From Patescibacteria group bacterium (GTDB taxonomy: Bacteria; Patescibacteriota; Minisyncoccia; Phycocordibacterales; WO2-35-19), in the NCBI GenBank assembly GCA_038064735.1, contig JBBTSI010000003.1, positions 21,154 to 85,153 on the forward strand: 64,000 bases of DNA. Reading direction: 5' to 3'. Shown here in pieces: positions 7,129 to 60,367 of this stretch. The translations under genes were made by a program, and so were the position numbers. Position 1 is the first letter of the stretch, and each line of letters opens with the position of its first letter. The notes under the pieces are model-generated. The model was not told the origin of the DNA. It searched no databases and was given only the letters and a program-made list of their open reading frames with translations.

Positions 7129-7863
7129 CTACTTGGCTACGTGGCCTTTATGAAAATCTATGATTTTCTTTACTGTTTTATCAATGTTTACTGGTCTGGC
7201 TTCAAAGTAATCATTGAACGTTTTGTATTTTCTCATAAAAAAAGTATTATGACTAGCTCTTTTGTACATTAGTTTGAATAGCTTTATAGAATCTTTATTA
7301 TTGAATATGAGCTGAAATGACCTGTTGCTTTTATAAATTCTCCCATTTTCAATCTTTTCGTTTGCCAATACAGTGTTCATTTTTTCCAAAAATATCTTAC
7401 TCCCGCTTGTAAAAAATGTTCTAATTCTTTTTATGATTATTTTACCAGTGTCGCTTATCGACTTTTCAAAATAAATACAACCATCACCATCAAAATATCC
7501 TCTTATAAAATGATTTAAATATTTGTTTGGAATATTAGGAAACTGCACAGTTAGAGATTTATTTGGATATAAACCATGTTTAATAAGATCATTATAAATT
7601 TTATGATTACCGATTTTCAATGTATAGAAAGTTTTACCCTTTAAGAATAACGATTTATTTTTGGTTATGTTGTGTTCCGAACCCATCATTTTTTTGATTC
7701 GTTCTGGAGAATCTTTGTCTGTACTTGTGATAGATAAATATAAAGCTCTAATATAGTCGCAATTTATTAATGTGCCGTCAGCATATACATAACCTAGTAC
7801 ATAGGCCATATTTGGAGACCATTTATTAAAAAAATTTTCGTTTAATTTATGTTTTATACCCAC
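7129..7863 (-). CDS. LAGLIDADG homing endonuclease, double-motif
   Basis: Two dodecapeptide motifs [11 protein letters not shown] and [12 protein letters not shown]; free-standing, 91 nt upstream of and co-oriented with tRNA-Leu(UAA). Confidence 0.7.
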
Positions 7864-10275: not shown

Positions 10276-11544
10276 ATGAAAAATAAGGTGAAAATTAAAA
10301 AAACCCAGCCTTCGCATAAAGCTACGGCGGGCAAAGATAGGGTATTTTTGGACTATGCATCTGTGACGCCGGTTGATTTGGGTGTAGAAAAAGAAATGCA
10401 GAGGGTTCAAAAGCAATTTTGGGCAAATCCTTCATCCTTGCACAAGGAAGGGGAAGAGGCTAAAAATATTTTGGAAGAATCTAGGACAAAAATTGCCCGA
10501 ATTTTGCATTGCCGTAGTAGTGAAATATTTTTTACAAGCGGGGGTACCGAATCTTTAAATTTGGCTATTTTGGGTGTGGTCAAAAGAAGCCAAAGGGCGT
10601 CTTTACCGCATATAATAGTTTCAACAATAGAACATCCGGCTGTTTTGGAACCAATAAAAAATTTACTTAAAGAAAAAGTGATTGAAGTTTCTTTTATTAC
10701 ACCAAACGAGAAGGGAATAATTAGCCCAGAATCTGTCAAAAAAGAAATGAAAGAAAATACTGTTTTGGTCGTTGTTCAGCATGCTAATAATGAAATAGGA
10801 ACTATCCAACCAATAAGAGAAATTTCAAAAGCTATTAAAAATTTCAAAGAATCAGAAATGGCAAAATTGCAAAAAGCTGCGGATAAATCCCGCTTTTTGA
10901 ATTTTGCCATTTCTGATTCTCAGACTGCTCCATATCTGTTGGTAGATGCGTGTCAGAGTGTTTTGTATGAAGATGTTTCGTTAGAAAGACTCGGCGCTGA
11001 TATCTTAGTTTTGGATGGTATTAAAATGTATGGGCCAAGAGGTGTTGGCGTTTTAGCGGTAAAGCATGGCACCAAAATTTCTCCCATAACTTTTGGCGGG
11101 GGACAGGAGAATGGTTTCAGGCCGGGAACAGAAAATGTGATTGGAGTAGCTGGTTTCGCCAAAGCTTTGGAAATTTCTGTCAAAATGATGGAGAAAGAAT
11201 CAAAACGACTTTTGCAATTATGCGATTATGCTATTTCTAAAATTTTGGAAATACCAAATTCTTCTTTGAATGGCAATAAAGAAAATAGATTACCTAATAA
11301 TATTAATGTTTGTTTTTCCAATCAAGATTCGGAATTTTTGGTTATCAAATTGGATACTCTGGGTTTTGCTGTTTCGGCCGCTTCAGCTTGTCATACTTTG
11401 TCACTTGAAAACGGCTCTTATGTTATTGAGTCTATCGGCAAACCGGAATGTTCAGGTTCTTCTTTGCGTATCACTCTAGGTAGAGACACCAAAAAATCAG
11501 ATTTAGATAAATTTATAGTTGCTCTTAAAAAAATACTTTGTTAA
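10276..11544 (+). CDS. cysteine desulfurase (class V aminotransferase, IscS/NifS family) carrying an in-frame palindromic insertion
   Basis: FLDYASVTPVD, TSGGTESLNLAI, IEHPAVLEP and the active-site region SAASACHT; 25-aa insert KESEMAKLQKAADKSRFLNFAISDS encoded by the palindrome at 10849..10919. Confidence 0.85.
   Translation: MKNKVKIKKTQPSHKATAGKDRVFLDYASVTPVDLGVEKEMQRVQKQFWANPSSLHKEGEEAKNILEESRTKIARILHCRSSEIFFTSGGTESLNLAILGVVKRSQRASLPHIIVSTIEHPAVLEPIKNLLKEKVIEVSFITPNEKGIISPESVKKEMKENTVLVVVQHANNEIGTIQPIREISKAIKNFKESEMAKLQKAADKSRFLNFAISDSQTAPYLLVDACQSVLYEDVSLERLGADILVLDGIKMYGPRGVGVLAVKHGTKISPITFGGGQENGFRPGTENVIGVAGFAKALEISVKMMEKESKRLLQLCDYAISKILEIPNSSLNGNKENRLPNNINVCFSNQDSEFLVIKLDTLGFAVSAASACHTLSLENGSYVIESIGKPECSGSSLRITLGRDTKKSDLDKFIVALKKILC
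10849..10919. repeat. 71-nt perfect palindromic element (family 1) inserted in-frame in the cysteine desulfurase gene
   Basis: gaatcagaaatggcaaaattgcaaaaagc / 14-nt loop / gctttttgaattttgccatttctgattc; second copy at 47326..47396. Confidence 0.85.
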
Positions 11545-29613: not shown

Positions 29614-29624
29614 TTTTGTTGTTG

Positions 29625-29694
29625 TTAACCCCGTTAGAAGTCAGATGCAAAGCATCTGCTGAAGTTAATAACTTCAGACTTCTAACGGGGTTAA
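29625..29694. repeat. inverted-repeat element TTAACCCCGTTAGAAGTC...GACTTCTAACGGGGTTAA between divergent dprA and serS
   Basis: 18-bp perfect arms enclosing two internal hairpins (agatgc/gcatct and ctgaagtt/aacttcag). Confidence 0.7.
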
Positions 29695-29726
29695 CATTTA
29701 TTTTAACAAATGGTAGAATAAAAGAC

Positions 29727-37900: not shown

Positions 37901-38554
37901 TTAATCAAAAGTGTCAAAGATGCCCTTTGACACTATCCTTTTGTAAAGTTTTGTGTTTTCATTTATAAAATTTTTTGTGTTGCCAAATATTTCAGTTAAG
38001 AATTGTTTATGAATTATTTTATTTTTTCTATTGCTTATAAAATCAACATAGCTACTCCATTTGTATTTTTCAGGTTTATCGATAAAACCATCTTTAATTG
38101 GATTCATATGTATATAAGAAGAAATCAGCATAAGTTGCGGATTTGTTTCGATTTGGACAGATTTAAATTGATCTTGGAAAACATGGCCAACTCTTTTGTA
38201 TTTAAGATTTATGTATTTTGCAAAACTGGTAAATACTCTGGACATAAGTTTTGAAATTGATTCATCACCGCACTGCTCTATCAATAGGTGAATATGGTTT
38301 GGCATTAAACAAAAAGCATGAAGTTTAAAATTTTCTGGTTTTAAACTAGTGATCCTTATCCTTGATTTAGGGGATTTGGTTATTTCGCATTCATTCAAAT
38401 CTTTAATATCAAATCCAAGACCTAATCCTAATCTAAAAAGAAAAGTTCTGTAATCTTGTTCATCTCTGAATATTATTTCTTTATTATCACCACGATTATA
38501 GATGTGGTGAATAGAATCTTTGGTGAAATTTTTATAATCTCTATTTCTTCCCAT
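37901..38554 (-). CDS. Y1 HUH transposase, IS200/RAYT-like
   Basis: HUH motif CLMPNHIHLLIE and catalytic-Tyr region SSYIHMNPIKDG; start at ATG 38554 (MGRNRD) with TGTGGTATAAT 7 nt upstream. Confidence 0.7.
   Translation of the reverse strand: MGRNRDYKNFTKDSIHHIYNRGDNKEIIFRDEQDYRTFLFRLGLGLGFDIKDLNECEITKSPKSRIRITSLKPENFKLHAFCLMPNHIHLLIEQCGDESISKLMSRVFTSFAKYINLKYKRVGHVFQDQFKSVQIETNPQLMLISSYIHMNPIKDGFIDKPEKYKWSSYVDFISNRKNKIIHKQFLTEIFGNTKNFINENTKLYKRIVSKGIFDTFD
37911..37933. repeat. 23-nt perfect palindrome GTGTCAAAGATGCCCTTTGACAC (REP-like), copy a
   Basis: Within the 3' codons of the transposase gene and 35 nt upstream of the hydrogenase small-subunit ATG. Confidence 0.8.
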
Positions 38555-38577
38555 ATTAAAATTATACCACAAGTAAA

Positions 38578-38600
38578 ATGTCAAAGGGCATCTTTGACAT
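38578..38600. repeat. 23-nt perfect palindrome ATGTCAAAGGGCATCTTTGACAT (REP-like), copy b, centre inverted
   Basis: Between the hypothetical gene stop and the transposase start. Confidence 0.8.
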
Positions 38601-38611
38601 GTCGAAGAGTT

Positions 38612-39634
38612 CTAAGACTCAGAAGATTTGTTTTCGGTGTTTGTGTTTGGTTCAGTTTCAGTTTTTTCTTTTTCAAGGTTTTCGTGAAGCTCTTTGCCCG
38701 CTTCTTCTCCGATTTCTTTTAAATCATTTACATACCCAAGAGCTCTTTTTCTTTGTTCTGGGTGTTTGACTATGCTTCCGATCATTTTATCTTTCAAATA
38801 TCTTTTTTGGTCTTCTGTTTGTGTACTTGTTTCTACAGTTATATCTGAATAATGTTTACTGGTAGGTAGTCTGCTTTTTATTGTGGAAATTTTCTTATTA
38901 TCTGGATGTTCCTTTGTTCCAATCAAAATTTCTTTTATAGCTTGTTGAAAACCGTAAATTTTAGGATTTTTATCTTTTAATATTCTTGAAAGAAATCTCA
39001 TTGTGTTTTGAAGACTGTTGCTACATGAAAGATAAACATCATCAATTTTACTCACATGTTTTCCATTAAATTCAAAAAATCGTTTTTTAAAAGTAGCTTC
39101 TTCTTTTTCGTTTGGCCAACGTACATTGTCTGCAATGCTACCCTCATCAAATACCATTATTACTGGATTATCCTTATCAATTCTTTGTCCAATATAATCA
39201 AGAGCTTCTGGGATATCTCGTGCTTCTTGTTTAAGAATTTCTTTTAGATTTTGGTCTTTTGTCTTTTTGATTTCTGTTTTATTAACGGGTTCATAATTTG
39301 TCCACCATAGACGATGATTTTTAGGAACTATTCTGTAAAATCTAGGGTTTTCTTCTTCGGTGTAAGCATTTTTCCAAGTTTCCTTTAAAACATAACCATA
39401 AGGAATGGCACCAGTTTCGGTTAAAAAAATATAATCTGGTTGTATTTCATCGTGCCATTGTTTTACAACTCTTTCCGCCCAATTTTTTATTTTTTCAATT
39501 TGTTCTGGAGCAAGTTGTTCTTTCCACCCTTTTTCTATATCCATTTCTGGCACTTTCTTTTCTTCAGAAATTTTGTTTTCTGAATTTTCAGGGGAGATAT
39601 CTGGTATTTTTGGTTCATTTTGAAAACCTTCCAT
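38612..39634 (-). CDS. hypothetical protein (acidic, Lys/Glu-rich termini)
   Basis: 340 aa, no recognisable domain; bracketed by REP-like palindromes. Confidence 0.5.
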   Translation of the reverse strand: MEGFQNEPKIPDISPENSENKISEEKKVPEMDIEKGWKEQLAPEQIEKIKNWAERVVKQWHDEIQPDYIFLTETGAIPYGYVLKETWKNAYTEEENPRFYRIVPKNHRLWWTNYEPVNKTEIKKTKDQNLKEILKQEARDIPEALDYIGQRIDKDNPVIMVFDEGSIADNVRWPNEKEEATFKKRFFEFNGKHVSKIDDVYLSCSNSLQNTMRFLSRILKDKNPKIYGFQQAIKEILIGTKEHPDNKKISTIKSRLPTSKHYSDITVETSTQTEDQKRYLKDKMIGSIVKHPEQRKRALGYVNDLKEIGEEAGKELHENLEKEKTETEPNTNTENKSSES

Positions 39635-39672
39635 AAATATATATTAACACAAGTATTCCATTATCTTAACAA

Positions 39673-39695
39673 ATGTCAAAGATGCCCTTTGACAT
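39673..39695. repeat. 23-nt perfect palindrome ATGTCAAAGATGCCCTTTGACAT (REP-like), copy c
   Basis: 38 nt upstream of the 38612..39634 gene start. Confidence 0.8.
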
Positions 39696-39746: not shown

Positions 39747-41219
39747 ATGTCGGAGAATTTAAATAATGAAATATTTACCATAGGCATCGGTGGGGCGGCT
39801 GGAGAGGGTGTCAAATATGTAGGCAATAACATCGGATTACTTTTACGTGATTTGGGTTTTCAAATTTATCTATCATTGGATTATCCATCACTCATTCGGG
39901 GTGGGCACAATTTCGTCAGATTGAGTGCTAGTGTGGATAAGATTTGGAATGATCACGCCAAGTTGGATATTTTGATATGTTTAAATGAAAAAACTGCGGA
40001 AATTCATAAAAGTGAGCTCAAAGAAGGTGCATGGGTACTCGAGGGTTTAAATAATGAAGAAATTTTGGGTAAAGTCAGAGAATTTTTGAGTACCAAAGGA
40101 TTAGCCGACTTCGCTTCAGGCTCCGTCGCGCCGAAGGGTGAACTAATTGATGGTAATACCGCTTTTGCCAAAGGTTTGCAGATGGCAGGTTTGGATTTTT
40201 ATTTTGCTTATCCTATGACACCATCGACTTCTATTTTGCATTATCTCGCCAGCAAGCAAACTAAAGAAGGACTTAAGGTTATTCAGCCAGAAAATGAAAT
40301 CGCTGTCATCAATATGGCGCTCGGTAGTGTTTATACTGGCAAAAGAGTGGCAGTAGGGACGGCGACTGGCGGTTTTGCTTTGATGCAGGAAGCTTTTAGT
40401 TTCAGTGGTATGGCTGAACTTCCACTTGTGTTAGCTGTGGTGCAAAGGCAAGGGCCAGCGACTGGTGTACCGACGAGAAGTTCCCAATCAGATTTGCGTT
40501 TTGTGATCCATGCTGGTCATGGAGAATTTCCAAGAATTGTTTTAGCACCAGGAGATCCAGAGGAATGTTTTAAAGCAGGAATAGAAGCAATGGATTTAGC
40601 TTGGAAATTTAAATCACCAGTTATTGTTTTGCTTGATAAAGCTTTGTCGGAACACATAATGACTGTGGACATTGAAAGATTGACCCAGCTTTCGCTAAAA
40701 GCTACGGCGGGCGAAGAAAATGCAAATATAATTTTTCCTGGTACTCCAGAAAAGGTAGTAAAAGTTACTAGTTATGAACACGATGAAGAAGGTATCACTG
40801 TTGATAAACCCGAAGATGTTAAGACAGCGATGGATAGGAGGTTTGCTAAGGGAGAGAAGATCAAGGAAGAAATGAATAACAGAGAAACTATCAAAATATA
40901 TGGAGATACGTCAAGCAAAAATACAATTGTGTTTTTTGGTTCTAGCAAGAGTCCGATACTTGAAGCGGCGAAACTTTTAGAAAAAAATATTAAATTGGTT
41001 CAAATTTTGTGGCTTGAACCGTTTGATTCAGAGAAACTTAAGAAAGAATTTGAGGGAATGAATAAAATAATTTGTGTGGAGGCCAATCACAGTGGGCAAT
41101 TAGCAAGTTTAATCAGAGAGAGGACAGGTATTGAAGTTACTGATAAAATTTTGAGATATGATTCATTACCATTTGAACCGGAAGAACTCGCTCTGCAAAT
41201 TAATTCAATTTTAAAATAA
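39747..41219 (+). CDS. korA: 2-oxoacid:ferredoxin oxidoreductase, fused gamma+alpha subunit
   Basis: N-terminal gamma-like GGAAGEGVKYVGNNIG and a POR/KOR alpha core. Confidence 0.8.
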   Translation: MSENLNNEIFTIGIGGAAGEGVKYVGNNIGLLLRDLGFQIYLSLDYPSLIRGGHNFVRLSASVDKIWNDHAKLDILICLNEKTAEIHKSELKEGAWVLEGLNNEEILGKVREFLSTKGLADFASGSVAPKGELIDGNTAFAKGLQMAGLDFYFAYPMTPSTSILHYLASKQTKEGLKVIQPENEIAVINMALGSVYTGKRVAVGTATGGFALMQEAFSFSGMAELPLVLAVVQRQGPATGVPTRSSQSDLRFVIHAGHGEFPRIVLAPGDPEECFKAGIEAMDLAWKFKSPVIVLLDKALSEHIMTVDIERLTQLSLKATAGEENANIIFPGTPEKVVKVTSYEHDEEGITVDKPEDVKTAMDRRFAKGEKIKEEMNNRETIKIYGDTSSKNTIVFFGSSKSPILEAAKLLEKNIKLVQILWLEPFDSEKLKKEFEGMNKIICVEANHSGQLASLIRERTGIEVTDKILRYDSLPFEPEELALQINSILK

Positions 41220-41220
41220 A

Positions 41221-42015
41221 ATGGCAGAATTAAATTTATCTACAAAAGCAAAAATAACATGGTGTCCAGGGTGTCCAAACTCGCAGATTTTGGTGGCTTT
41301 CAGAAAAGCCGTGACTGAGATGGTAGAGAATGGTTCACTCAAGATTGAAAATTTGGTGGCTTTTGCTGGTATTGGATGTCACGGTAAAATTTCTGATTAT
41401 ATAAATGTCAACACTTTCACTTCACTTCACGGCAGACTTATCCCAGCTATGACAGGTAGCAAATGCGCTAATCCAAATCTTAATGTTATAGGTTTTTCTG
41501 GTGATGGTGATTCTTTGGATGAAGGTATAGAGCACCTCATTCATGCTGCTAAAAGGAATTCGGATATAACTTTGTTTATGCATGACAACAGAGTTTTTGC
41601 TTTGACGACCGGCCAGTTTGATGCTCTCAGTCCCAAAGGTTTTAAAGGTAAATCTTCTCCGTTTGGTAGTATTGAAGAACCATTAAATCCACTTTTACTT
41701 TTGCTTTCTGCTGGGGCTACTTTTATTGCTAGGACTTATGCTGGTGATATTGCCGGTACTAAAAAAATAATGCAGGCCGCTATGAACCACAAAGGTTTTG
41801 CTTTTGTCGACATTATCCAACCTTGTATCACTTTTTTTGATACTCGTGATTATTTTAAAGATAAGATTTATTGGATGGATGAAGGTTTACCCAAAAATGA
41901 TTTGAAATTTTCTATAGAAAAAGTTTCTGAAAATCAAAATGAAAAAGTACCTTTAGGAATATTTTATCAAGTCGAAAGATCAACTTTTGAAGAAGAATTA
42001 TATAAATCCCGTTAG
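41221..42015 (+). CDS. korB: 2-oxoacid:ferredoxin oxidoreductase beta subunit (TPP-binding)
   Basis: CPGCPN, GIGCHGK and GDGDSLDEG (TPP/Mg motif). Confidence 0.8.
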   Translation: MAELNLSTKAKITWCPGCPNSQILVAFRKAVTEMVENGSLKIENLVAFAGIGCHGKISDYINVNTFTSLHGRLIPAMTGSKCANPNLNVIGFSGDGDSLDEGIEHLIHAAKRNSDITLFMHDNRVFALTTGQFDALSPKGFKGKSSPFGSIEEPLNPLLLLLSAGATFIARTYAGDIAGTKKIMQAAMNHKGFAFVDIIQPCITFFDTRDYFKDKIYWMDEGLPKNDLKFSIEKVSENQNEKVPLGIFYQVERSTFEEELYKSR

Positions 42016-42085
42016 AAATACCAAATTATGTTCATTATGCAAAAAAATTATTGTCGATTATTAAAAGTTAGATTTCTAACGGGAT
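42006..42085. repeat. inverted-repeat element ATCCCGTTAGAAAT...ATTTCTAACGGGAT between korB and the acd gene
   Basis: 14-bp perfect arms, 52-nt spacer; left arm contains the korB stop codon; right arm ends 7 nt before the next ATG. Confidence 0.7.
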
Positions 42086-42092
42086 AAATAAT

Positions 42093-44147
42093 ATGAATTT
42101 AGAAAATTTTTTTAATCCAAAATCAGTAGCGGTTATTGGTGCTTCATCTGACACTAAAAAAGTGGGTTTTGCTCTAATTTCAAATCTTTTGAAAAATAAT
42201 CCGCCAACTGATGGAAGAAAAATTTTCCCTGTTACTCTCTCAGAAAAAGAAATTTTAGGTATGGAGACTTTCTCTTCTATTTTAAATATTCCAGATCAGG
42301 TTGATTTGGCGATAATAGCTGTAAGAGCTGATATAGTACCCAATATTTTAGTCGAATGTAGTGAAAAACATGTTTCTAATGCAATAATAATTTCTTCTGG
42401 CTTTAAAGAAATGGGGATTAAAGGTAAAGAACTCGAAAACGAAATTTCAAAAATAGCTAAAGAAAAAAATATCACTCTTTTGGGACCAAACTGTCTCGGT
42501 GTTATCGATACGAAAAAAAATTTGAATGCTTCTTTCGGTGGTCGGCAACCGCTTCCAGGTAGTATTGCTTTCTTATCCCAATCCGGTGCGCTCGGTACTG
42601 CTCTTATAGATTGGTCTATAGATGAAGGTATCGGTTTTTCCAAAATCATAAGTTTGGGTAACGAAGCACAGCTTACCGAAATCGATTTTTTGGAATTTTT
42701 AGAAAATGATCCTGAAACTTCTGCAATTTTGATGTATTTGGAAAATATAAATGATGGACCGAAATTTTTGGAAACTGTAAAAAGAATTACCTTGAAGAAG
42801 CCTGTGGTTATAATAAAAGCAGGTATGGGTAATCATGGAAATTTGGCTGTCATGTCTCACACTGGAGCTTTGGCACCGCAACCTGCAGTGTTCATTTCTG
42901 CTTGTCGACAAGCGGGTGCTACTACTGTGTCATCAGTGCGGGGATTTTTTAATATTATTAAAATATTGTCTCAAATAGGATTTAAAAAAGATCCTATTCA
43001 ACATTTGATTATTTTGACAAATGGTGGTGGACCGTCTGTCGTTGCTGCTGATCTTATCGACCGTTCTCGTTCTCTATCTCTCGCAGTTTTTTCTGAAAAT
43101 ATTAAAGAGGAATTGCGCGCTACTTTACCTAAAATGGCTGCTATCGGGAATCCAGTTGATATTATAGGTGACGCTCTTGCAGACCGATATGACAAAGCCC
43201 TCGAAATTTTATGCAAAGCGGAAGATTGTGATGCAATCATGGTGATACTTACTCCTCAAATGATGACAGAAGCAGCAGAGACTGCGAAAGTACTTGCTAA
43301 GTATAAAGATAAAAAAATAATATTTCCGGTTTTTATAGGCGGAGAGGGGATACAAGCTGGACGCAATGAACTCATAAAATCTGGTTTGGTTCACTTTGTT
43401 TTCCCTAGAGATGTTATCGATAGTTTAGATTATTTGGCTCAAAGTTCTCCTAAACGCAAACCCAATTCCGGTCACCATAGCTTTGGACATCATGGTGAAC
43501 TTATGACTTCGGTAAGAAATGGAGAGATGATGGAATTTAAATCAACACTAGAATTACTTTCTCAATACAATATTTCTATTGAAGGCCGATTTTTAACTAG
43601 AAAAGAAGATTTAGGAAATGCTTTAAATTCACTCGGTAGCGGTCCTTATACAATGAAAGCGATTTCCAAAGAAGCGGTTCATAAAACCGAAACAGGAGCA
43701 GTTAAATTAAATATTTTAAGTGTAGATGAAGCCAACTGGATATGGGAAGATATGTGGACGAAAATTCCAAAAGTGGAGGGTATTATTGTTCAGAAAATGG
43801 AAAAAGGTAGGGAAATAATAATCGGTATGAAAAGAGACAACACTTTTGGTCCGACGATACTTTTTGGTTTGGGTGGGATTTTTGCCGAAGCAATAAAGGA
43901 TACAGTGCTACGTGTTGCCCCAATTGGAAAAATTGAGGCTCTAGAAATGATGCAAGAAATAAAGGGTATCAAAATTTTGCAAGGTCTGCGTGGCCAACCA
44001 CCAGTAAACTTTGAAATGCTGGCCGATATTCTCGTAAATCTCTCTAAACTTTCTCTTGATCATCCGGAAATAAAAGAAATTGACTTTAACCCTGTTATGG
44101 CTACTGAAAATTCCGCCATCATTGTGGATGTGAGGATAATGATTTGA
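42093..44147 (+). CDS. acetyl-CoA synthetase (ADP-forming), fused alpha-beta (NDP-forming acyl-CoA synthetase)
   Basis: CoA-binding N-terminus KSVAVIGAS, succinyl-CoA-synthetase-like flavodoxin domain, ATP-grasp C-terminal half. Confidence 0.8.
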   Translation: MNLENFFNPKSVAVIGASSDTKKVGFALISNLLKNNPPTDGRKIFPVTLSEKEILGMETFSSILNIPDQVDLAIIAVRADIVPNILVECSEKHVSNAIIISSGFKEMGIKGKELENEISKIAKEKNITLLGPNCLGVIDTKKNLNASFGGRQPLPGSIAFLSQSGALGTALIDWSIDEGIGFSKIISLGNEAQLTEIDFLEFLENDPETSAILMYLENINDGPKFLETVKRITLKKPVVIIKAGMGNHGNLAVMSHTGALAPQPAVFISACRQAGATTVSSVRGFFNIIKILSQIGFKKDPIQHLIILTNGGGPSVVAADLIDRSRSLSLAVFSENIKEELRATLPKMAAIGNPVDIIGDALADRYDKALEILCKAEDCDAIMVILTPQMMTEAAETAKVLAKYKDKKIIFPVFIGGEGIQAGRNELIKSGLVHFVFPRDVIDSLDYLAQSSPKRKPNSGHHSFGHHGELMTSVRNGEMMEFKSTLELLSQYNISIEGRFLTRKEDLGNALNSLGSGPYTMKAISKEAVHKTETGAVKLNILSVDEANWIWEDMWTKIPKVEGIIVQKMEKGREIIIGMKRDNTFGPTILFGLGGIFAEAIKDTVLRVAPIGKIEALEMMQEIKGIKILQGLRGQPPVNFEMLADILVNLSKLSLDHPEIKEIDFNPVMATENSAIIVDVRIMI

Positions 44148-45988: not shown

Positions 45989-46687
45989 TTATATACCAGG
46001 ACCAAAATATTTTTCACGATAGAAGCGGATGAGTTGTTCGACTTTGGGGACGAGGTCGGGGTGGCCGACGGCGACTTTGGTGCGTTTTTGGACATCGACT
46101 AAAGTGACAGCGCCTTCGAGGACGGCTTCTTCAATATCAGCTTCAGTGGTTTTGGTATCTGGGTCTAAAATTTGTTGACCATCGGTGACGATTCTTTTAA
46201 GCTGGCCGGTTTTTTTGAACCAATCATTGAGTGCGGCGCGGAGCGCTTTGTCGCCGAGGACCGAGCAATGGATTTTCCTATCTGGCAGACTGCCCAATCT
46301 TTTTATAATATCTTGCGGTCTGATTTGCAAAGCTTTGTCGATCTTCATACCACCCCCGCCCGAACGACTGTTCAGTCGGGCAGGTTTCTCGCCAATCATC
46401 ACAGAAAGCATCGAAGTGGTGGCGATAGCCGAAGCACAACCGAAAGTGCGCCATTTCATTTCTTTTATTCTATCCGTTTTCTTATCAATTTTAAGCCAAA
46501 TGCGCATCACATCTCCGCAAGCCGGTGAGCCGACGATACCCGAAGCATCATATTTGGCCTCTTTCGGATCTTCTAGAAGCAAGTTTCTGGGTTTGAAGAA
46601 GTGCTCTTTCACTTCTTTGGTGTAAACCCAAGAATTGCCAGTAAACTTATTAACCACGTCAGGTTTATTTTTTTTCATATAATTCAA
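45989..46687 (-). CDS. IscU/NifU-N-like Fe-S cluster scaffold with N- and C-terminal extensions
   Basis: Three scaffold cysteines: SPACGDV, RTFGCASAIA, HCSVLGD. Confidence 0.65.
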   Translation of the reverse strand: MNYMKKNKPDVVNKFTGNSWVYTKEVKEHFFKPRNLLLEDPKEAKYDASGIVGSPACGDVMRIWLKIDKKTDRIKEMKWRTFGCASAIATTSMLSVMIGEKPARLNSRSGGGGMKIDKALQIRPQDIIKRLGSLPDRKIHCSVLGDKALRAALNDWFKKTGQLKRIVTDGQQILDPDTKTTEADIEEAVLEGAVTLVDVQKRTKVAVGHPDLVPKVEQLIRFYREKYFGPGI

Positions 46688-47915
46688 AAGGGGAAATTTG
46701 TCTTAACCTCTTCACAACTTCCGGCAAATGCTTTAGCACATATTTAACATCTTCAGATGTGCTGTATTTACCCAAAGTGAAGCGCAGACTACCATGAATA
46801 TATTCGTATGGGTTGCCAAGTGCAGAAAGAATATAAGATGGCTCCAAACTTTGGGAATTGCAGGCACTACCGGTGGAGACCATTATACCAAGCTCGTCCA
46901 GATATAAAAGCAGAGCCTCGCCTTCCACATCCAAAATAGAAATATTGAGGAAATTTGGTAAGCGTTTGGCTGGGTGGCCATTCAAAATAACTTTGGGAAT
47001 AATTTTAAAAATACCTTTTTCTAAAGTGTCGCGAAGTTTTTTGATACGAGCGGTTTCTGTTTTTCTTTTTTTAGTGACTAACTCTAGTGCCTTGACGAAG
47101 CCAACAATGCCAGCGACATTTTCGGTACCACTACGCAATCTTTGCTGACCACCACCATAAATAATAGGGGAAATTTGGGTGCCCTTTTTCACATACAAAC
47201 CGCCGACACCTTTGGGTCCGTAAATTTTGTGAGAAGAAATAGTCATTAAATCTGCGCCAAGTTTCTCTACATCCAAATCCAAAAATTTTGCTGATTGGCT
47301 TGCGTCGGTATGAAGGTGGGGGAAAGAATCTGAAAAAGCAAAATTGCAAAAAGCTGCGGATAAATCCCGCTTTTTGAATTTTGCTTTTTCAGATTCTTTG
47401 AATTCCTTAATTATTTTCGAAATCTCTGCAATCGGTTGAATGGTGCCAGTCTCACTATCAGCCATAGTGATGGAAATTAAAATAGTTTTTGCATCCAATT
47501 CTTTTTTTAATACTTCCAAATCTACTAAGCCGTTTTTCAAAACCGGCAACCTTACAATTTTAAAATTATCCTTTTCTAAAGCATCGCAAGTTTTCAAAAC
47601 CGCTTTGTGTTCAATTTGGGTAGTTATGATTTTGCCCCCTTTTTCTTTATTAGCTTTGGCAACGCCAAGTATAGCCAGATTATCCGCTTCAGTAGCCGAA
47701 CCAGTAAATACAAATTCATCGGGTCGGCAATTTAAAATTTTGGCGATGGTTTTAGTTGATTTAGTGATAGCAAATTTAGATTTTTGGCCCAATCTATACA
47801 GACTCCCAGGATTACCAAAATCTTCCTTAAAATAAGGGAGCATCGCAGAGACGACCTGTTTGTCTACAGGAGTAGTCGCGGCATAATCAAAATACCTCTG
47901 CTTTTTCATGAGCAT
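46665..47915 (-). CDS. cysteine desulfurase (IscS/NifS family) carrying an in-frame palindromic insertion
   Basis: FDYAATTPVD, TGSATEADNLAI, SSHKIYGPKGVG (PLP Lys), STGSACNS (catalytic Cys); insert KESEKAKFKKRDLSAAFCNFAFSDS encoded by the palindrome at 47326..47396. Confidence 0.85.
   Translation of the reverse strand: MLMKKQRYFDYAATTPVDKQVVSAMLPYFKEDFGNPGSLYRLGQKSKFAITKSTKTIAKILNCRPDEFVFTGSATEADNLAILGVAKANKEKGGKIITTQIEHKAVLKTCDALEKDNFKIVRLPVLKNGLVDLEVLKKELDAKTILISITMADSETGTIQPIAEISKIIKEFKESEKAKFKKRDLSAAFCNFAFSDSFPHLHTDASQSAKFLDLDVEKLGADLMTISSHKIYGPKGVGGLYVKKGTQISPIIYGGGQQRLRSGTENVAGIVGFVKALELVTKKRKTETARIKKLRDTLEKGIFKIIPKVILNGHPAKRLPNFLNISILDVEGEALLLYLDELGIMVSTGSACNSQSLEPSYILSALGNPYEYIHGSLRFTLGKYSTSEDVKYVLKHLPEVVKRLRQISPFELYEKK
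47326..47396. repeat. 71-nt perfect palindromic element (family 1), second copy, in-frame in the second cysteine desulfurase
   Basis: Central 44 nt identical to the copy at 10849..10919; outer stem differs at 3 positions per arm, all compensatory. Confidence 0.85.
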
Positions 47916-48851: not shown

Positions 48852-49158
48852 CTCCGCGGGTTGGATTCGAACCAACGACCAATCGCTTACATAGAATCTC
48901 CTATTACTAGAAGTATGGACTATATCATCCCCATGTCTTTTGATTTAGGGGCGAGGGGCTTCGAACGTGAAATAAACACGTCCTACTCCATAAAGGATAG
49001 TCTCTACACCTTCCCTGACTTTTGTCTGGGCTTGGCTCGGGATTGCCCGCTTTTTAAAGCTTGGGTTTCCCCGAATTCACCTCGTTTTTCATCCAAAATT
49101 TCTTTTGGAAGCTGCATTATAAATACAGGCGACTGCGCTACCGCTGCGCCACCGCGGA
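48852..49158 (-). tRNA. tRNA-Asn(GUU) interrupted by a 235-nt group I intron in the anticodon loop
   Basis: Exons: 5' UCCGCGGUGGCGCAGCGGUAGCGCAGUCGCCUGU (49158..49125), 3' UAAGCGAUUGGUCGUUGGUUCGAAUCCAACCCGCGGAG (48889..48852). Spliced anticodon loop CUGUUAA, U1-A72 and G73 as in E. coli tRNA-Asn. Confidence 0.7.
48890..49124 (-). mobile_element. group I intron, subgroup IC3-like (Azoarcus/Anabaena tRNA-intron type)
   Basis: P7 strands AGACUA / UAGUC; near-identical matches to the Azoarcus core: CGAGCCAAGC, GAAGGUGUAGAGACUA, GUGAAUUCGGGGAAACC. 5' splice site after U (U.G with IGS GCAG); last intron nt G. Confidence 0.75.
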
Positions 49159-49167
49159 GCTTAATGA

Positions 49168-49461
49168 TTATTTATTTTTCAAGTTACAAATCTCTTTCGG
49201 GATTTTTGTGATCTCATCATGGACTTCCATATGACAATTCGCACAAAGCAACACACATTTGTCTATTTCTTTGCGAAGCCTTTCCCACGAACGTGTTAAA
49301 CCCTTAGAAGACATATCGAAGTCTTTGTTTTTAGGATTTACATGGTGGAAACTCAATGCTCGTGAGCATTTATTGTAACCACATATCGCGCATTTGTTGC
49401 CTTTATAAGATCTAGCCATTTCACGCAGTTTTATTCTTCTGCGTTTAACAGCCATAACCAT
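49168..49461 (-). CDS. HNH endonuclease
   Basis: CAICGY...HHVNP...CANCHMEVH (HNH zinc-finger nuclease motif); stop codon 9 nt upstream of the intron-bearing tRNA-Asn; start uncertain (49461 or upstream 49548). Confidence 0.65.
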   Translation of the reverse strand: MVMAVKRRRIKLREMARSYKGNKCAICGYNKCSRALSFHHVNPKNKDFDMSSKGLTRSWERLRKEIDKCVLLCANCHMEVHDEITKIPKEICNLKNK

Positions 49462-49611
49462 ATACTTTGCTCGATCGGCATAAGTCCTTGTCTCTTTTCT
49501 TATTTTGGTATACACAACATAAGTATACCACATAAATTTAAAGAACATTGCTATTGTAGCAAAAATCTATACGGTTGCAATAACGAAAATATATTTGGTA
49601 TACTTATATGT

Positions 49612-56665: not shown

Positions 56666-58489
56666 ATGGAAAAACACCCCCTTCACCTCAAAATCCCAGA
56701 ACTGCAAAAGTCAGAAGAAGTAGAATTAGCTGTAGAAAAACAGGAACGTCTAACTGAGGAAAAAATACCCAACAATCCCAACGAAAGAATAGAAGCATAC
56801 ATGGATCGTTTGGAAAACATCTTCCTCAACCCCAACGAACGGGTAAGAGAAAGGAACCTGGAGATGGTCAAAAACAAGATATACGATAACCTCCTCATCA
56901 AGAAAGAAAACTTCCCTGAGTCATACTTCGAACTCCAAAAAAGAGTAGCTAGAGAACAAGGTCACGGTGATATAGAAATCACTCCGGAAATGCGTGACCA
57001 AATGATGAATGTAGCTATCGAAGACCAAAAACATTCTCTAGACCAATGGACAGACTACCTCACATCAGAAGATGCTGTCTATCCGGCTTGGTTTAAATAC
57101 TACGCTTGGAGCCAAGTCATTAAGTTATCTCAATTTGATAAAGAAAGAGGTGAATTCAAAAAACGCACTGACTCTACCGTCGCTCCATACCCCGATATAT
57201 ACCGCGAACCCCTAGCTGAACTCTGCGACCTTTACGAAAAAGTTAAGGAAGATAACAAGGCTCTCAAAGATGATGAAGTCAAAAGACTCTTTTCTGAAAG
57301 ATTTCCTTCTGCTTACGCCGAACTCATTCAAAAATCCCTCGCTTCTCAAATTGAAAATCAAGAAGAAATCAAAGGAGAATGGATAAAGTATGAACAAGGT
57401 GATATGAGACAAGCCGAGAAACTCTACGAATCTCTGGAAGGCAAAGGCACTGGTTGGTGTACTGCAGGCAAGTCAACCGCTAAAACTCAAGTTGAACAAG
57501 GAGATTTTTATGTATATTACACTAACGATTCAGAAGATAAACCCACTCAACCCAGATTAGCTATCCGTATGAACGGTCAAAACAAAATTGGTGAAATTCG
57601 AGGTATTTTACCTCATCAAAACGTTGAATCTATGATGCAAGATGTATTAGACAGAAAACTCAACACCTTTGGTGACGCTGGTGATATCTACAGAGAAAAA
57701 AGCTATGATATGCAACGTCTCACTAAGATTGAGGAAAAGACCAAATCAAACCAAGAACTTTCAAAAGAAGACCTCATCTTTCTCTACGAAATCAACAGAA
57801 AGATTGAAGGGTTTGGGTATGACAAAGATCCGAGAATTGAGGAGATTAGAGGAGAGAGGAATATAAAAGAAGACGCGCCAATCATACTTGAATGCAAACC
57901 TGAAGAAATCGCTACCAATGAAAGTGAAATAACAGAAAACACCAAAGCCTACATTGGCAAACTTTTTCCCAACATATTTAAAACCAACATTAACCCAGAT
58001 AATATTTATACTTCTTTTCCTGAAGGCAAAATTCAAAAATATGAGACTCAGATTGGAGGAAAAACTAAAGATGAATTAATGCTAGAAATGCAAGAAAAAA
58101 ATATCAATATTTCAGATTATGCTAAGGATATGTTAAACAGCCAAGATTTTACTACTCAAACAAATCAAGAAAACCTCAATCTCGTCAGACTAACTGTCAA
58201 AGACTTGGGATTCCCAAATGGCACTACTACAGATGAAATTTACAAGAAAGCCGAAGAATTCGGTTTAGAACTCTGTCCCGCTGAAGTCGGCCCATCCCTC
58301 AGACTCTCATATTTAGGGAAAGATTATATGGTTATCGCTATGAAGCAAATCACAGACCGCGACGGCCGCCTGAGAGTGTTTGACCTCTACTGGTATGGCG
58401 GCAAGCTCGTACTGAGCACGTTTTACGCTAAGCCTTCGAATAGGTGGGATGACTACCACAAGTTCATTTTTCGTTCCCGCAAGTCTTAG
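56666..58489 (+). CDS. DGR target (variable) protein, 607 aa, C-terminal C-type-lectin/FGE-like variable region
   Basis: C-terminal 44 codons form the variable repeat (VR), homologous to the downstream template repeat with adenine-specific differences; the rest has no recognisable domain. Confidence 0.75.
   Translation: MEKHPLHLKIPELQKSEEVELAVEKQERLTEEKIPNNPNERIEAYMDRLENIFLNPNERVRERNLEMVKNKIYDNLLIKKENFPESYFELQKRVAREQGHGDIEITPEMRDQMMNVAIEDQKHSLDQWTDYLTSEDAVYPAWFKYYAWSQVIKLSQFDKERGEFKKRTDSTVAPYPDIYREPLAELCDLYEKVKEDNKALKDDEVKRLFSERFPSAYAELIQKSLASQIENQEEIKGEWIKYEQGDMRQAEKLYESLEGKGTGWCTAGKSTAKTQVEQGDFYVYYTNDSEDKPTQPRLAIRMNGQNKIGEIRGILPHQNVESMMQDVLDRKLNTFGDAGDIYREKSYDMQRLTKIEEKTKSNQELSKEDLIFLYEINRKIEGFGYDKDPRIEEIRGERNIKEDAPIILECKPEEIATNESEITENTKAYIGKLFPNIFKTNINPDNIYTSFPEGKIQKYETQIGGKTKDELMLEMQEKNINISDYAKDMLNSQDFTTQTNQENLNLVRLTVKDLGFPNGTTTDEIYKKAEEFGLELCPAEVGPSLRLSYLGKDYMVIAMKQITDRDGRLRVFDLYWYGGKLVLSTFYAKPSNRWDDYHKFIFRSRKS
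58353..58485 (+). repeat. DGR variable repeat (VR)
   Basis: 133-nt alignment to the TR; 18 mismatches, 17 at positions where the TR has A. Confidence 0.8.
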
Positions 58490-58827
58490 AGATTTGGATA
58501 CTTAGTTTCTTAATTCCAATTTTCCTTATTTAGATTTTTTGAAATTTTGATACTTTGGTTTTTATTTTTTTAAAATTCTGTATACTAAATTCAGATTGGT
58601 TATTTTGGACGGTCACGGCTTTCCAAAACCTTTCCGATACAAATAAATTGAGATTATAAACGGCCACGGCTTTTTATAGAGTAATTTATTTTGTATTCTA
58701 AAAAGAAATATACTTGGTATATGGTGCTGTGTGATTTGAGATCATGCATAAAATTAAACTCAAGTTTTTGTTTTTCATTAAATAATCACAAGAGAAGAAC
58801 GGTGTAATAGATGGCGCTGTATACAAA

Positions 58828-58960
58828 CAGACCGCGACGGCAACCTGAAAGTGTTTAACCTCAACTGGAATGGCGACAAGCTCAAACTGAACACGAACAA
58901 CGCTAAGCCTTCGAATAGGTGGAATGACAACAACAAGTTCATTTTTCGTTCCCGAAAGTC
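58828..58960 (+). repeat. DGR template repeat (TR)
   Basis: Rich in AAC/AAT codons in the VR reading frame (N L K V F N L N W N G D K L K L N T N N ...); non-coding copy 340 nt downstream of the VR. Confidence 0.8.
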
Positions 58961-58981
58961 ACTTCTTTTCCTTGCTGGATT

Positions 58982-59383
58982 TTATCTCGCAAGGTTTTTC
59001 TTTTCCGGATTTTCTAAATTTTTCCTCCAACCACCAAACATTTTACCGATTTCTTTCAATTTTTCTCCAATTTCTGCGTATTGTTTATGAGAAATTAGTT
59101 TACCTTCCCAAGTTATATGAATCAAAAATTTGATGGCGTCCAAATCTAAAATACACTGGTTTATCCTTTCTATTTTCTTATCTTTTTCGATAAAATAGGC
59201 TATATATGAAAGTTCCAGCAAATCCAAAAATTTATTCTCAATGCGAGCACCAATGCTGTGGCGTTGGCCTTTAGGCACATGATCAAGAATACTTACCCAA
59301 AGCAAATATGCCTCTTTGATGCGTTGAAGTATCGAGGCGTTAACGAGAGAGAGAGAGAGAGAGAGAGTAGAAAATTGCGCCAT
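58982..59383 (-). CDS. avd: Avd-like accessory protein (four-helix-bundle, 23S rRNA IVS-protein family)
   Basis: 133 aa; pattern ...HVPKGQRHSIGARIENKFLDLLELSYIAYF...YAEIGEKLKEIGKMFGGWRK typical of the TIGR02436/Avd family; N-terminus LSLSLSLS encoded by a (GA)n repeat. Confidence 0.6.
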   Translation of the reverse strand: MAQFSTLSLSLSLVNASILQRIKEAYLLWVSILDHVPKGQRHSIGARIENKFLDLLELSYIAYFIEKDKKIERINQCILDLDAIKFLIHITWEGKLISHKQYAEIGEKLKEIGKMFGGWRKNLENPEKKNLAR

Positions 59384-60367
59384 AAATATAACGATACCAT
59401 ATCAGTAGAAAATTTGCTCCACTCTTGGCAGGAATTTTTGTGTGGCAAGAAAAAACGCAAAGATGTAGCCGAATTTTTATTAAATTTTTCTGATAATATT
59501 TTTGATTTGCGTCAAGAACTCAAAAACAAAACTTACAAACACGGTGGATATCATGCTTTCAAAATAAATGACCCAAAACCAAGGAGTATTCATAAAGCTA
59601 GTGTCAGAGACAGACTTTTACACCATGTAATTTATAATGCTCTGTATCCGTATTTTGACCGGAAATTTATTTTTGATTCGTATTCTTGTAGGTTTGGGAA
59701 GGGGACACATAAGGCTATAAATCGTTTCAGAGAATTTGGCCGCAAAGTCTCAACAAATCATACTAAAACCTGTTGGGTATTGAAGTGTGATATCAGGAAG
59801 TTTTTTGCTAGTATTAATCATAATCTTTTGAAAGATATTCTTGATAAAAATATCAAAGACCCAGACATTTTTTGGCTACTTAATCAGGTTATAGATAGCT
59901 TTAATACAGAAAACAAAGTTGATGTCGGTTTGCCTCTCGGTAACCTTACAAGTCAGATTTTTGTAAACATTTATATGGACAAATTTGATCAGTTTATGAA
60001 AAGAGAAATCAAAGCCAAATATTATATAAGATACGCAGATGATTTTGTGATTTTAAGCGAAAACAAAAATTATCTTTTAAAACTTATACCTAAAATCGCT
60101 AGTTTTTTAGAAGAAAAATTAAAATTAGAATTGCACCCAAACAAACTTTTTGTTAAAACCTTATCTTCAGGGATTGATTTTCTGGGCTGGGTGCATTTTC
60201 CTAAGTATAGAGTTTTGAGAACTAGCACCAAAAATAGAATGTTTAGAAGACTAGCAGGGGAATTTAAAAAAGAAACAGGGGCTTCGTATTCAGGACTATT
60301 GAGTCATGGGAACGGGTTTAAGTTGGGGGAGAGAATTAAGTTGTTGCAAAAGCAAAATTTGGTATAA
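59258..60367 (+). CDS. DGR reverse transcriptase
   Basis: RT motifs: SYSCRFGKGTHKA, LKCDIRKFFASINH, GLPLGNLTSQIFVNIYM (DGR-specific SQ motif 4), YIRYADDFVIL (motif 5). True start uncertain; the listed ORF start overlaps avd in antisense. Confidence 0.8.
   Translation: MALAFRHMIKNTYPKQICLFDALKYRGVNERERERESRKLRHKYNDTISVENLLHSWQEFLCGKKKRKDVAEFLLNFSDNIFDLRQELKNKTYKHGGYHAFKINDPKPRSIHKASVRDRLLHHVIYNALYPYFDRKFIFDSYSCRFGKGTHKAINRFREFGRKVSTNHTKTCWVLKCDIRKFFASINHNLLKDILDKNIKDPDIFWLLNQVIDSFNTENKVDVGLPLGNLTSQIFVNIYMDKFDQFMKREIKAKYYIRYADDFVILSENKNYLLKLIPKIASFLEEKLKLELHPNKLFVKTLSSGIDFLGWVHFPKYRVLRTSTKNRMFRRLAGEFKKETGASYSGLLSHGNGFKLGERIKLLQKQNLV
59345..59365. repeat. (GA)10 dinucleotide microsatellite
   Basis: gagagagagagagagagagag inside the avd 5' coding region and the RT upstream frame. 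Confidence 0.9.

Follow-up and report, generated by a model that had tools for sequence, protein, structure and literature searches.

Rickettsia palindromic elements (RPEs), whose description is credited to Ogata et al. in 2000, are reportedly 100-150 bp long and are found in dozens of copies over unrelated genes, RNA genes and spacers. Repetitive extragenic palindromic (REP) sequences and the REP doublets forming hairpins (REPINs), which go with a REP-associated tyrosine transposase (RAYT) and are linked with the names of Nunvar (2010) and of Bertels and Rainey (2011), are said to be extragenic and multi-copy, to have conserved arms and a variable centre, and to match the REPs that flank the RAYT gene. 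Here, we describe a hairpin-forming element of approximately 75 nt that is present in frame in two paralogous cysteine desulfurase genes, G1 and G2, of a Paceibacteria genome (candidate phyla radiation, CPR/Patescibacteria) near Ca. Zambryskibacteria, assembled from Hainich groundwater. The stretch of DNA analysed, referred to below as the window, comprises 64,000 nt of contig JBBTSI010000003.1 (positions 21,154 to 85,153). To our knowledge, almost nothing is known of the regulatory and mobile-DNA biology of the Patescibacteria, and full-text searches turned up no description of CPR genes with in-frame palindromic inserts. As far as the data reach, a single hypervariable surface loop of both paralogues is the only place where the element is found, and the carriers belong to a small Paceibacteria clade. 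Our leading interpretation, which is offered tentatively, is that it is a self-maintaining quasi-palindrome, ancestral in G1 and repeatedly copied into G2, with a further constraint on its core that this origin leaves unexplained.

MITEs (miniature inverted-repeat transposable elements) are also found inside genes, for example the enterobacterial RU/ERIC sequences in open reading frames (ORFs) (PMC2759123; reviewed in PMC10969869). Template switching, in turn, has been documented for the homogenisation of the arms of inverted repeats, for the inversion of spacers, and for the creation and expansion of arms (PMC8604942, PMC8794818); template-switch outcomes in inverted repeats are also described in PMC13100816. 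In a study of yeast coding regions, the arms were at least 7 bp long (10-16 bp in the examples) and the inverted spacers differed at 2-5 bases (PMC8604942).

Structure of the element in the two desulfurase genes

G1 (10276..11544, + strand) encodes 422 aa with an Aminotran_5 domain, and its orthologues are annotated as cysteine desulfurase and match PF00266; G2 (46665..47915, - strand) encodes 416 aa. The two proteins are 43% identical, rather more than the 35-40% that a first-pass annotation of the window had estimated by eye, and both have the class-V aminotransferase fold, the closest solved structure to G2 being that of A. fulgidus IscS (4EB5/4R5F, E = 1e-103). The same annotation had placed two copies of the element in frame and at the homologous position of the two paralogues, and coordinates and alignment agree with this: both inserts follow GTIQPI.EISK.IK.FK. 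Copy 1 (10849-10919, +, in G1) is 71 nt long, has a minimum free energy of -42.3 kcal/mol (z -11) and encodes ESEMAKLQKAADKSRFLNFAISD in the sense of its gene; copy 2 (47326-47396, +, and thus inverted relative to G2) encodes ESEKAKFKKRDLSAAFCNFAFSD. The predicted hairpin consists of a perfect 20-bp outer stem (left 10849-10868 and right 10900-10919 in copy 1; 47326-47345 and 47377-47396 in copy 2), a 1-nt G bulge (10869; 47346), an 8-bp inner stem (10870-10877 and 10892-10899; 47347-47354 and 47369-47376) and an imperfect tip (10878-10891; 47355-47368) that is interrupted by two 1-nt bulges and closed by a 4-nt loop, to give 33 bp in total. An inverted-repeat search takes the pairing of copy 2 out to 47323-47399, with 29-nt arms. 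The element had been introduced as a perfect 71-nt palindrome, but 50/71 positions are their own reverse complement in register, and a strong hairpin with bulges is the better description. The predicted folding energies lie between -41 and -43 kcal/mol with z = -8.6 to -11, and equally stable folds were found in 0/200 shuffles.

The two copies are 92% identical across 75 nt. At their centre is a core, GCAAAATTGCAAAAAGCTGCGGATAAATCCCGCTTTTTGAATTTTGC, which is the same at 10861-10907 and at 47338-47384 on the + strand; its identity between the copies had been recognized from the outset, although its length is 47 nt rather than the 44 nt first given. The core occurs twice in the window compared to 0.00 times expected by chance. 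Both copies read alike on the + strand of the window and the genes lie on opposite strands, so that the element is, as originally noted, in opposite orientations relative to the genes; the central peptides differ by orientation (AKLQKAADKSRFLNFA versus AKFKKRDLSAAFCNFA). The outer stems of the two copies differ at three positions per arm, and the difference on one arm is mirrored on the other in 3/3 pairs.

A strand-specific rule of orientation was considered and rejected: the two window copies have the same absolute orientation and lie in one replichore, with positive GC skew throughout, and the two copies in another genome that carries the element twice (GCA_964459755.1) are both in the gene sense, so that they would have opposite absolute orientations if synteny is conserved. 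An assembly artefact is also ruled out. An independent assembly (L126) has copy 1 and its flanks in identical form, proteins with both inserts are recorded on three contigs, and the carriers come from five separate samples.

Occurrence in related genomes

A set of 240 orthologous sequences across both paralogue families was screened for the element. Seven copies are known in total, on either DNA or peptide evidence, and every one of them is in the same loop of the two families. The carriers besides G1 in its own family are P0002 (DNA L001) and P0003 (DNA L002); those besides G2 are P0124 (DNA L003), its cluster mate P0242 (DNA L128) and P0128, which is known from the peptide only and has the G1-sense peptide with one substitution. 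Two genomes carry the element in both paralogues, namely that of the window and GCA_964459755.1 (L001 and L128). The element has a common position, orientation and set of arms in G1, L001 and L002. Only in G2 is the centre flipped relative to the gene: compared with G1, L001, L003 and P0128, the arm type is identical and the central 31 nt are inverted.

A syntenic sister genome (ERZ2647956, 442-kb contig) has its two desulfurase genes approximately 44 kb apart on opposite strands, and an intact element is present in neither. Of these, the G2 orthologue (L087) is an empty site, and all that the G1 orthologue (L088) retains is sequence homologous to the left arm and the tip, the right arm being missing; the remnant is identical at 28/45 nt in register, which was matched by 0/100,000 shuffles. 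Neighbour-joining trees of the top 30 orthologues were star-like and were not relied on, and pairwise gene identities were used instead. By this measure, both sister-genome genes are nested among the carriers: the L088 gene has 82% nucleotide identity to L001 and L002 (G1 versus L001, 74%), and the L087 gene is 81-82% identical to L003 and L128 (G2 versus L003/L128, 71-72%). The element thus predates the split of L001, L002 and L088 and, because G1 lies outside that group, the simplest history is one in which it is older than the divergence of G1 as well. The remnant in L088 is 62% identical compared with 82% for its gene, and the broken palindrome has thus decayed faster than the gene around it. 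An alignment of orthologues had been proposed at the start as a check on the presence or absence of the insert, and it reveals carriers, a remnant and an empty site, together with a majority of orthologues in both families that lack the element and have other inserts or none.

Stem covariation and template switching

The outer stems vary among the copies yet remain complementary. The left outer arm is GAATCAGAAATG in G1, GAATCTGAAAAA in G2, GAGTCAGAAAAA in L001 and AAAACTCGGGGAA in L003 and L128; the last two have a strongly different outer stem (AAAACTCGGGGAA / TTCCCCGAGTTTT) enclosing the identical core, and upstream they also carry part of the left arm as a direct copy. Covariation was counted on an alignment of five sequences, with 33 pairs (165 cells), 500 shuffles and slid controls. 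Paired cells amount to 98.8%, with 2/165 unpaired. Both sides have changed in 10/33 pairs, all of them among the 12 outermost stem pairs, and this was matched by 0/500 shuffles; 20 pairs never vary, including all 18 innermost. The slid controls gave 36-59% pairing and at most three double changes. In L002, two changes are fresh and confined to the left arm, one giving a G·U pair and the other an unpaired position. The outer stem has accepted even mirrored changes that are non-synonymous (K to M, F to I).

It had been argued from the mirrored differences that selection acts on the integrity of the hairpin. The differences themselves are as described, three per arm and all mirrored, but the argument does not hold, because template switching mirrors changes without selection; a 'compensatory' pattern alone is no proof of hairpin selection, and such stem changes in general need not signify selection on structure. 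Similarly, template switching can invert a spacer, and so the opposite orientation of the copy in G2 requires no independent insertion.

We infer both a template-switch mechanism and a direction of copying from G1 to G2. The element would be ancestral in the G1 lineage and would have been copied on at least two occasions into the equivalent loop of G2 in the same genome, the copying probably being guided by the short common sequence TTCAAAGAATC..AAAAAG / GAAGCAAAA, through either ectopic template switching or short-patch conversion. The TTCAAAGAATC part is common to G1 and G2. Template switching in replication, with one arm serving as the template for the other, would place changes on both arms simultaneously; a nascent hairpin that folds back and copies native sequence upstream would lengthen the arms with locus-specific sequence; and an intermolecular switch would invert all that lies between the arms, which would give the flipped copy in G2. 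The mirrored multi-base differences match arm homogenisation, and the same arms around a reverse-complemented centre match spacer inversion. A core that lies between native sequence X and an inverted copy X', where X differs by locus, would match arm creation and expansion. In G2, the left outer arm (AAAGAATCTGAAAAAG) aligns with native codons of L003 and L128 (AAAGAATCTAAAAAAG) and of the empty site L087 (AGAGCCTCCAAAAAG), and nothing in element-free genes corresponds to the right outer arm; the ancestral state in this comparison is taken from only two element-free relatives. Within the G2 family, the element follows KESEK in G2, where it is flipped, and KESKKVKEETE in L003 and L128, and these differing codon positions argue for more than one copying event into G2.

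If this mutational account is true, the element would be an unusually clear natural bacterial case of template switching building, lengthening, flipping and maintaining a long palindrome, and one in which the palindrome sits inside essential-type coding genes and adds approximately 25 residues to an enzyme.

The invariant core

A number of observations weigh against template switching and copying between paralogues as a sufficient account. The core is identical in G1, G2, L001, L003 and L128, the host genes of which have diverged by 9-29% at the nucleotide level; L002 has a run of 40 nt identical to it. G1 and L001 have 76% amino-acid, 73.7% nucleotide and 54% third-position identity as genes, and their longest identical run is the 47-nt core, the runner-up being 20 nt (P ~5e-5 by simulation). 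L128 and L003 are 9% diverged, yet over the element they agree without a single difference for 140 nt, the runner-up tract being 41 nt (P ~4e-5 by simulation). Read codon by codon and pair by pair, the core appears to offer no fewer than three mirrored changes that are fully synonymous, along with four synonymous sites that are unpaired; none of these has been used. The substitution rate should not fall under unbiased homogenisation of the arms, so that a neutral palindrome is insufficient. Added to this, transfer from one paralogue to the other would have had to rely on only ~11 nt of continuous identity, and the fraction of the genome that is visible, approximately 10%, may leave room for more copies or for a master copy.

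Given that template switching leaves the invariance of the core unexplained, an extra sequence-specific constraint is implied, and the core hints at either a function or a mobilisation signal. Conservation acts on the nucleotide sequence and not on the peptide, as had been suggested; this is supported because the two orientations encode different central peptides, and both the synonymous and the unpaired sites of the core are invariant across genomes. An ordinary protein loop under peptide selection, in which the palindrome is incidental, would accommodate the in-frame position of the insert, the helix extension and short helix that are modelled for it (see below), and the variation in loop length in all relatives. 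It is nevertheless contradicted by the data and we consider it very improbable: the central peptides are not the same in the two orientations, the third codon positions of the core are invariant against 53-54% identity gene-wide, the hairpin has z = -9 to -11, and the peptide is absent from most orthologues.

A selected cis-acting hairpin, common to the two Fe-S/thiolation desulfurase genes and compatible with an origin by template switching, is a more serious alternative, although we regard it as unlikely. Putatively, it could be a substrate of RNase III, an intragenic attenuator or terminator that acts upon stalled translation, or a palindromic protein-binding site in the DNA. Such a hairpin would be consistent with a core invariance that covers unpaired and synonymous sites, with the fast decay of the L088 remnant after loss of its right arm, and with the presence of the element in both of two functionally linked genes and its absence from both in the sister genome; most orthologues, however, do without it. 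The perfect 20-bp outer stem would be a stretch of double-stranded RNA, and the tip is a GC stem followed by a T-run, with a terminator-like flag on the - strand in both copies (GCGGGATTTATCCGC AGCTTTTTGC), which is sense for G2 and antisense for G1. Against this, the terminator-like count is not above that of shuffles, and the flipped copy complements the loop and bulges in the mRNA, so that a loop-sequence-specific RNA function would not be conserved. No Rfam family matches the element at the gathering score, and a permissive search yielded nothing but eukaryotic models of miRNA hairpins, below threshold, which simply mirror the generic shape of a long hairpin. No factor that might bind the element was identified.

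It is possible, if on balance doubtful, that the core is a sequence-specific cis element of a kind undescribed in CPR, either a hairpin that homes to the loop or a regulatory hairpin that is kept in both Fe-S desulfurase genes in either orientation. The regulatory version may involve RNA processing, attenuation or a DNA-binding site within the coding sequence. If the core were functional or site-specifically mobile, it would constitute a new cis element tied to Fe-S cluster/thiolation genes in the Patescibacteria.

Searches for dispersed copies

The element had been likened to RPEs, and a search for its core throughout the genome had been proposed. No further copies were found in the 64-kb window (up to 3 mismatches; short-word BLAST), in ~18 kb of extra flank of the same genome (~82 kb in total, estimated as ~10% of the genome if this is <1 Mb), or in ~42 kb of the sister genome and the other fetched loci. 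The exact core had 0 matches in 185,579 species-representative genomes, a set without the source genomes that speaks for other sampled species, and 0 matches in JGI metagenome contigs, again a set without the source genomes; the insert peptide had no match among representatives of 1.84 billion protein clusters. The core search over ~82 kb thus recovers the two known copies and no dispersed ones, and, with all seven copies in one loop of two paralogue families and none elsewhere in the DNA searched, RPE-like dispersal is not supported.

Other leads were followed and set aside. A gapped pattern of the arms gave one match in metagenome contigs (L123), which is in AT-rich intergenic DNA and is attributed to chance. 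For a phage source, IMG/VR viral contigs gave chance matches only, the similarity not extending. No canonical parS site is present, and the core is unrelated to parS.

The remaining alternative is a mobile non-autonomous hairpin (MITE/REPIN/RPE-like), in which a hairpin-specific enzyme, for instance an HUH/Y1 transposase, mobilises the 47-nt core in trans, with either a strong preference for the loop site or survival only of those insertions that occur there. We give this a low probability. A core that is identical across species and paralogues while flanks and outer stems differ, the occurrence of two orientations and of different codons within the G2 family, and presence or absence between close relatives would all fit such mobility; yet there are two copies only in ~82 kb, both at homologous paralogue sites, and the position, orientation and arms shared by G1, L001 and L002 fit descent and not reinsertion. 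The window does contain a RAYT-like Y1 transposase gene (37901-38584), but the palindromes beside it (TGTCAAAG-ATGCC-CTTTGACA) are unrelated to the element, and this transposase was rejected as the mobiliser. Small repeats do enter coding DNA here, as a 35-nt repeat in two unrelated genes demonstrates; the core of the element, however, is unmatched in genome, metagenome and viral contigs, and its peptide is unmatched in protein cluster representatives. Neither a direct target-site duplication around the element (the gene-sense flanks are TTCAAA...TCTCAG in G1 and TTCAAA...TTTCCC in G2) nor, in the window or fetched loci, a parent insertion sequence with the same ends was found. Finally, with its centre conserved and its outer arms variable, the element is built the opposite way round from REPINs and MITEs.

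The loop and its inserts

Structural modelling of the insert site, which had also been proposed in the first-pass annotation, places it in a helix-to-strand connection. By reference to A. fulgidus IscS (4EB5/4R5F), the insert stands in for five residues that link a helix to the strand leading toward the Asp that binds pyridoxal phosphate (PLP), query residues 169-201 corresponding to chain residues 164-170. The AlphaFold model has a mean predicted local distance difference test (pLDDT) score of 88; in it, the native helix is extended to residue 182 and a short return helix (187-194) is placed ahead of the strand 200-204, with block-mean pLDDT values of 67-73 over residues 181-200. Judged from the fold, the insert would lie on the far side of the PLP fold, at a surface distant from the cofactor. 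The protein's tolerance of the insert, which is partly shown, is put down to the lengthening of no more than a helix-to-strand connection.

Each family has 3-4 indel hot spots, and this loop ranks first among them. Orthologues of G1 have 25-67 aa between the anchors GTIQPI and DA(C/S)QS, those of G2 28-76 aa, and several types of insert are seen in the two families alike, going by peptide similarity (PPQPLPxGEGRRGG, KLKIENS, HNSYPIIHT and RVALGQN). A second insert type was checked at the DNA level and is an AT-rich imperfect palindrome of AAGAATC/GATTCTT-like heptamers in the same loop, present at L084 3935-4078 in the G2 family and at L085 1090-1233 and L086 4898-5038 in the G1 family. The heptamer type comes from three other metagenomes and has the form (AAGAATC)n ... 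(CATAATT)n, with peptides such as RIKNYELSKKNSYSKFHDSYFINHNS.

The 35-nt repeat, ACCCAGCYTTCGCWWAAAGCTACGGCGGGCRAAGA, occurs in frame in unrelated genes at 10303-10337 and 40683-40717 of the window, the copies being 89% identical. One copy is in the N-terminus of G1, where it encodes TQPSHKATAGKD; the other is in the alpha subunit of pyruvate:ferredoxin oxidoreductase (POR), where it encodes TQLSLKATAGEE and gives a 7-aa net insertion relative to the sister-genome orthologue. Repeat-like peptides resembling these (PS.KA.AGK, SPK.SAKAG, SHFAKASRDES, SQGSPLKNFAPKGDPL) occupy other indel hot spots of the desulfurase orthologues. As the two desulfurase families show, short repeats and palindromes repeatedly colonise surface loops of Paceibacteria proteins, which affects both annotation and comparisons of protein length.

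Other features of the window

G2 lies directly upstream of nifU (45989-46687, -), its downstream neighbour, which has a NifU_N match. G1 is surrounded by genes for DUF4446, IF-2 and RbfA upstream, and for a Trypsin_2 protease and ClpB downstream.

The RAYT-like HUH/Y1 transposase ORF mentioned above is on the - strand and has the motifs HIHLLI and YIHMNP; it matches Pfam Y1_Tnp with 42 bits and NCBIfam REP_Tyr_transpos with 67.9 bits, the latter under the cut-off of 80. The 21-nt palindrome associated with it is present at 37912, at 38579 (with the loop inverted) and at 39674, such that the first two of these palindromes flank the RAYT-like ORF and the second and third flank a neighbouring 340-aa ORF without a family match; the region 37901-39694 constitutes a REPtron-like arrangement in a CPR genome. 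A block of ~34.4-39.7 kb, with DUF6390, NiFe hydrogenase subunits and the RAYT-like gene, is missing from the sister genome between POR and PAP2/Dus.

A diversity-generating retroelement (DGR) occupies 56666-60367. Its parts are a bAvd-like ORF (58982-59383, -), an RVT_1 reverse transcriptase (about 59258-60367, +), a template repeat (58827-58960) and a variable repeat (58352-58485), the last of these lying at the 3' end of a 607-aa ORF (56666-58489). Between the two repeats there are 18 differences, of which 17 fall on template-repeat adenines. A group I intron (Rfam RF00028, 67 bits, 48897-49134) is found in the anticodon loop of a tRNA gene (48862-49159, -) that was not called by ARAGORN, and the ORF beside it (49168-49548, -) has a weak HNH-nuclease match, just over the Pfam cut-off. 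A free-standing LAGLIDADG_3 ORF (7129-7863, -) comes just after tRNA-Cys within a cluster of tRNA genes.

Two intergenic inverted repeats (29623-29696 and 41982-42109) have the common motif TTCTAACGGG / CCCGTTAGAA; seryl-tRNA synthetase has one of them upstream, and the other separates the POR beta subunit from an acetyl-CoA synthetase (ADP-forming)-like gene. Together they may represent a common operator or RNA element. At 1-1634 of the window, and at L126 11136-13807, small paralogous ORFs stand in a row, several of which match T4SS_pilin / TrbC; common to the row of ORFs is a 74-nt repeat family, D1 (229-302, 520-593, 937-1010 and 1488-1561).

Relation to known systems

Like RPEs, the element is a stable hairpin that is carried in frame, adds a peptide where the fold tolerates it and is found in a small, reduced genome. 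In contrast to them, it is ~75 nt long (71-77 nt), has a conserved centre and variable outer arms, and has all its copies in one loop of two paralogues with no dispersed copies found; it is set apart from RPEs by dispersal, length and copy number. With REPINs and RAYT, it has in common a long hairpin with paired stems, and the window has a RAYT-like gene flanked by short palindromes of its own. Unlike REPINs, however, it lies within genes, is present twice per genome region, combines an invariant centre with variable outer arms, and does not match the palindromes that flank the RAYT-like gene. MITEs are likewise small inverted-repeat sequences that can be in frame and add peptides, but they have target-site duplications, many copies and a parent insertion sequence, of which the element showed none.

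Bidirectional intrinsic terminators provide a different comparison. In the tip of the element, a short GC stem-loop stands between an A-run and a T-run, as in intergenic hairpins of this genome (e.g. 1654-1698), whereas the element is in the middle of two essential-type genes and its pairing extends to 33 bp.

Quasi-palindromes formed by template switching (the Ripley model; PMC8604942, PMC8794818, PMC5941160) share with the element the mirrored multi-base differences of the arms, the same arms around an inverted centre and, as it appears, one arm that is a reverse-complement copy of adjacent native sequence; in coding DNA, several adjacent residues are changed in both. The yeast cases differ in scale, given that the arms here are 20-29 bp and 31 nt are inverted, and the mechanism alone does not predict a complex invariant core common to two paralogues and several species. 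The element is real and rests on firm statistics, and it belongs with known kinds, in-frame palindromic inserts and inverted repeats that template switching would drive; its one unexplained property is the invariant 47-nt core common to both paralogues across species.

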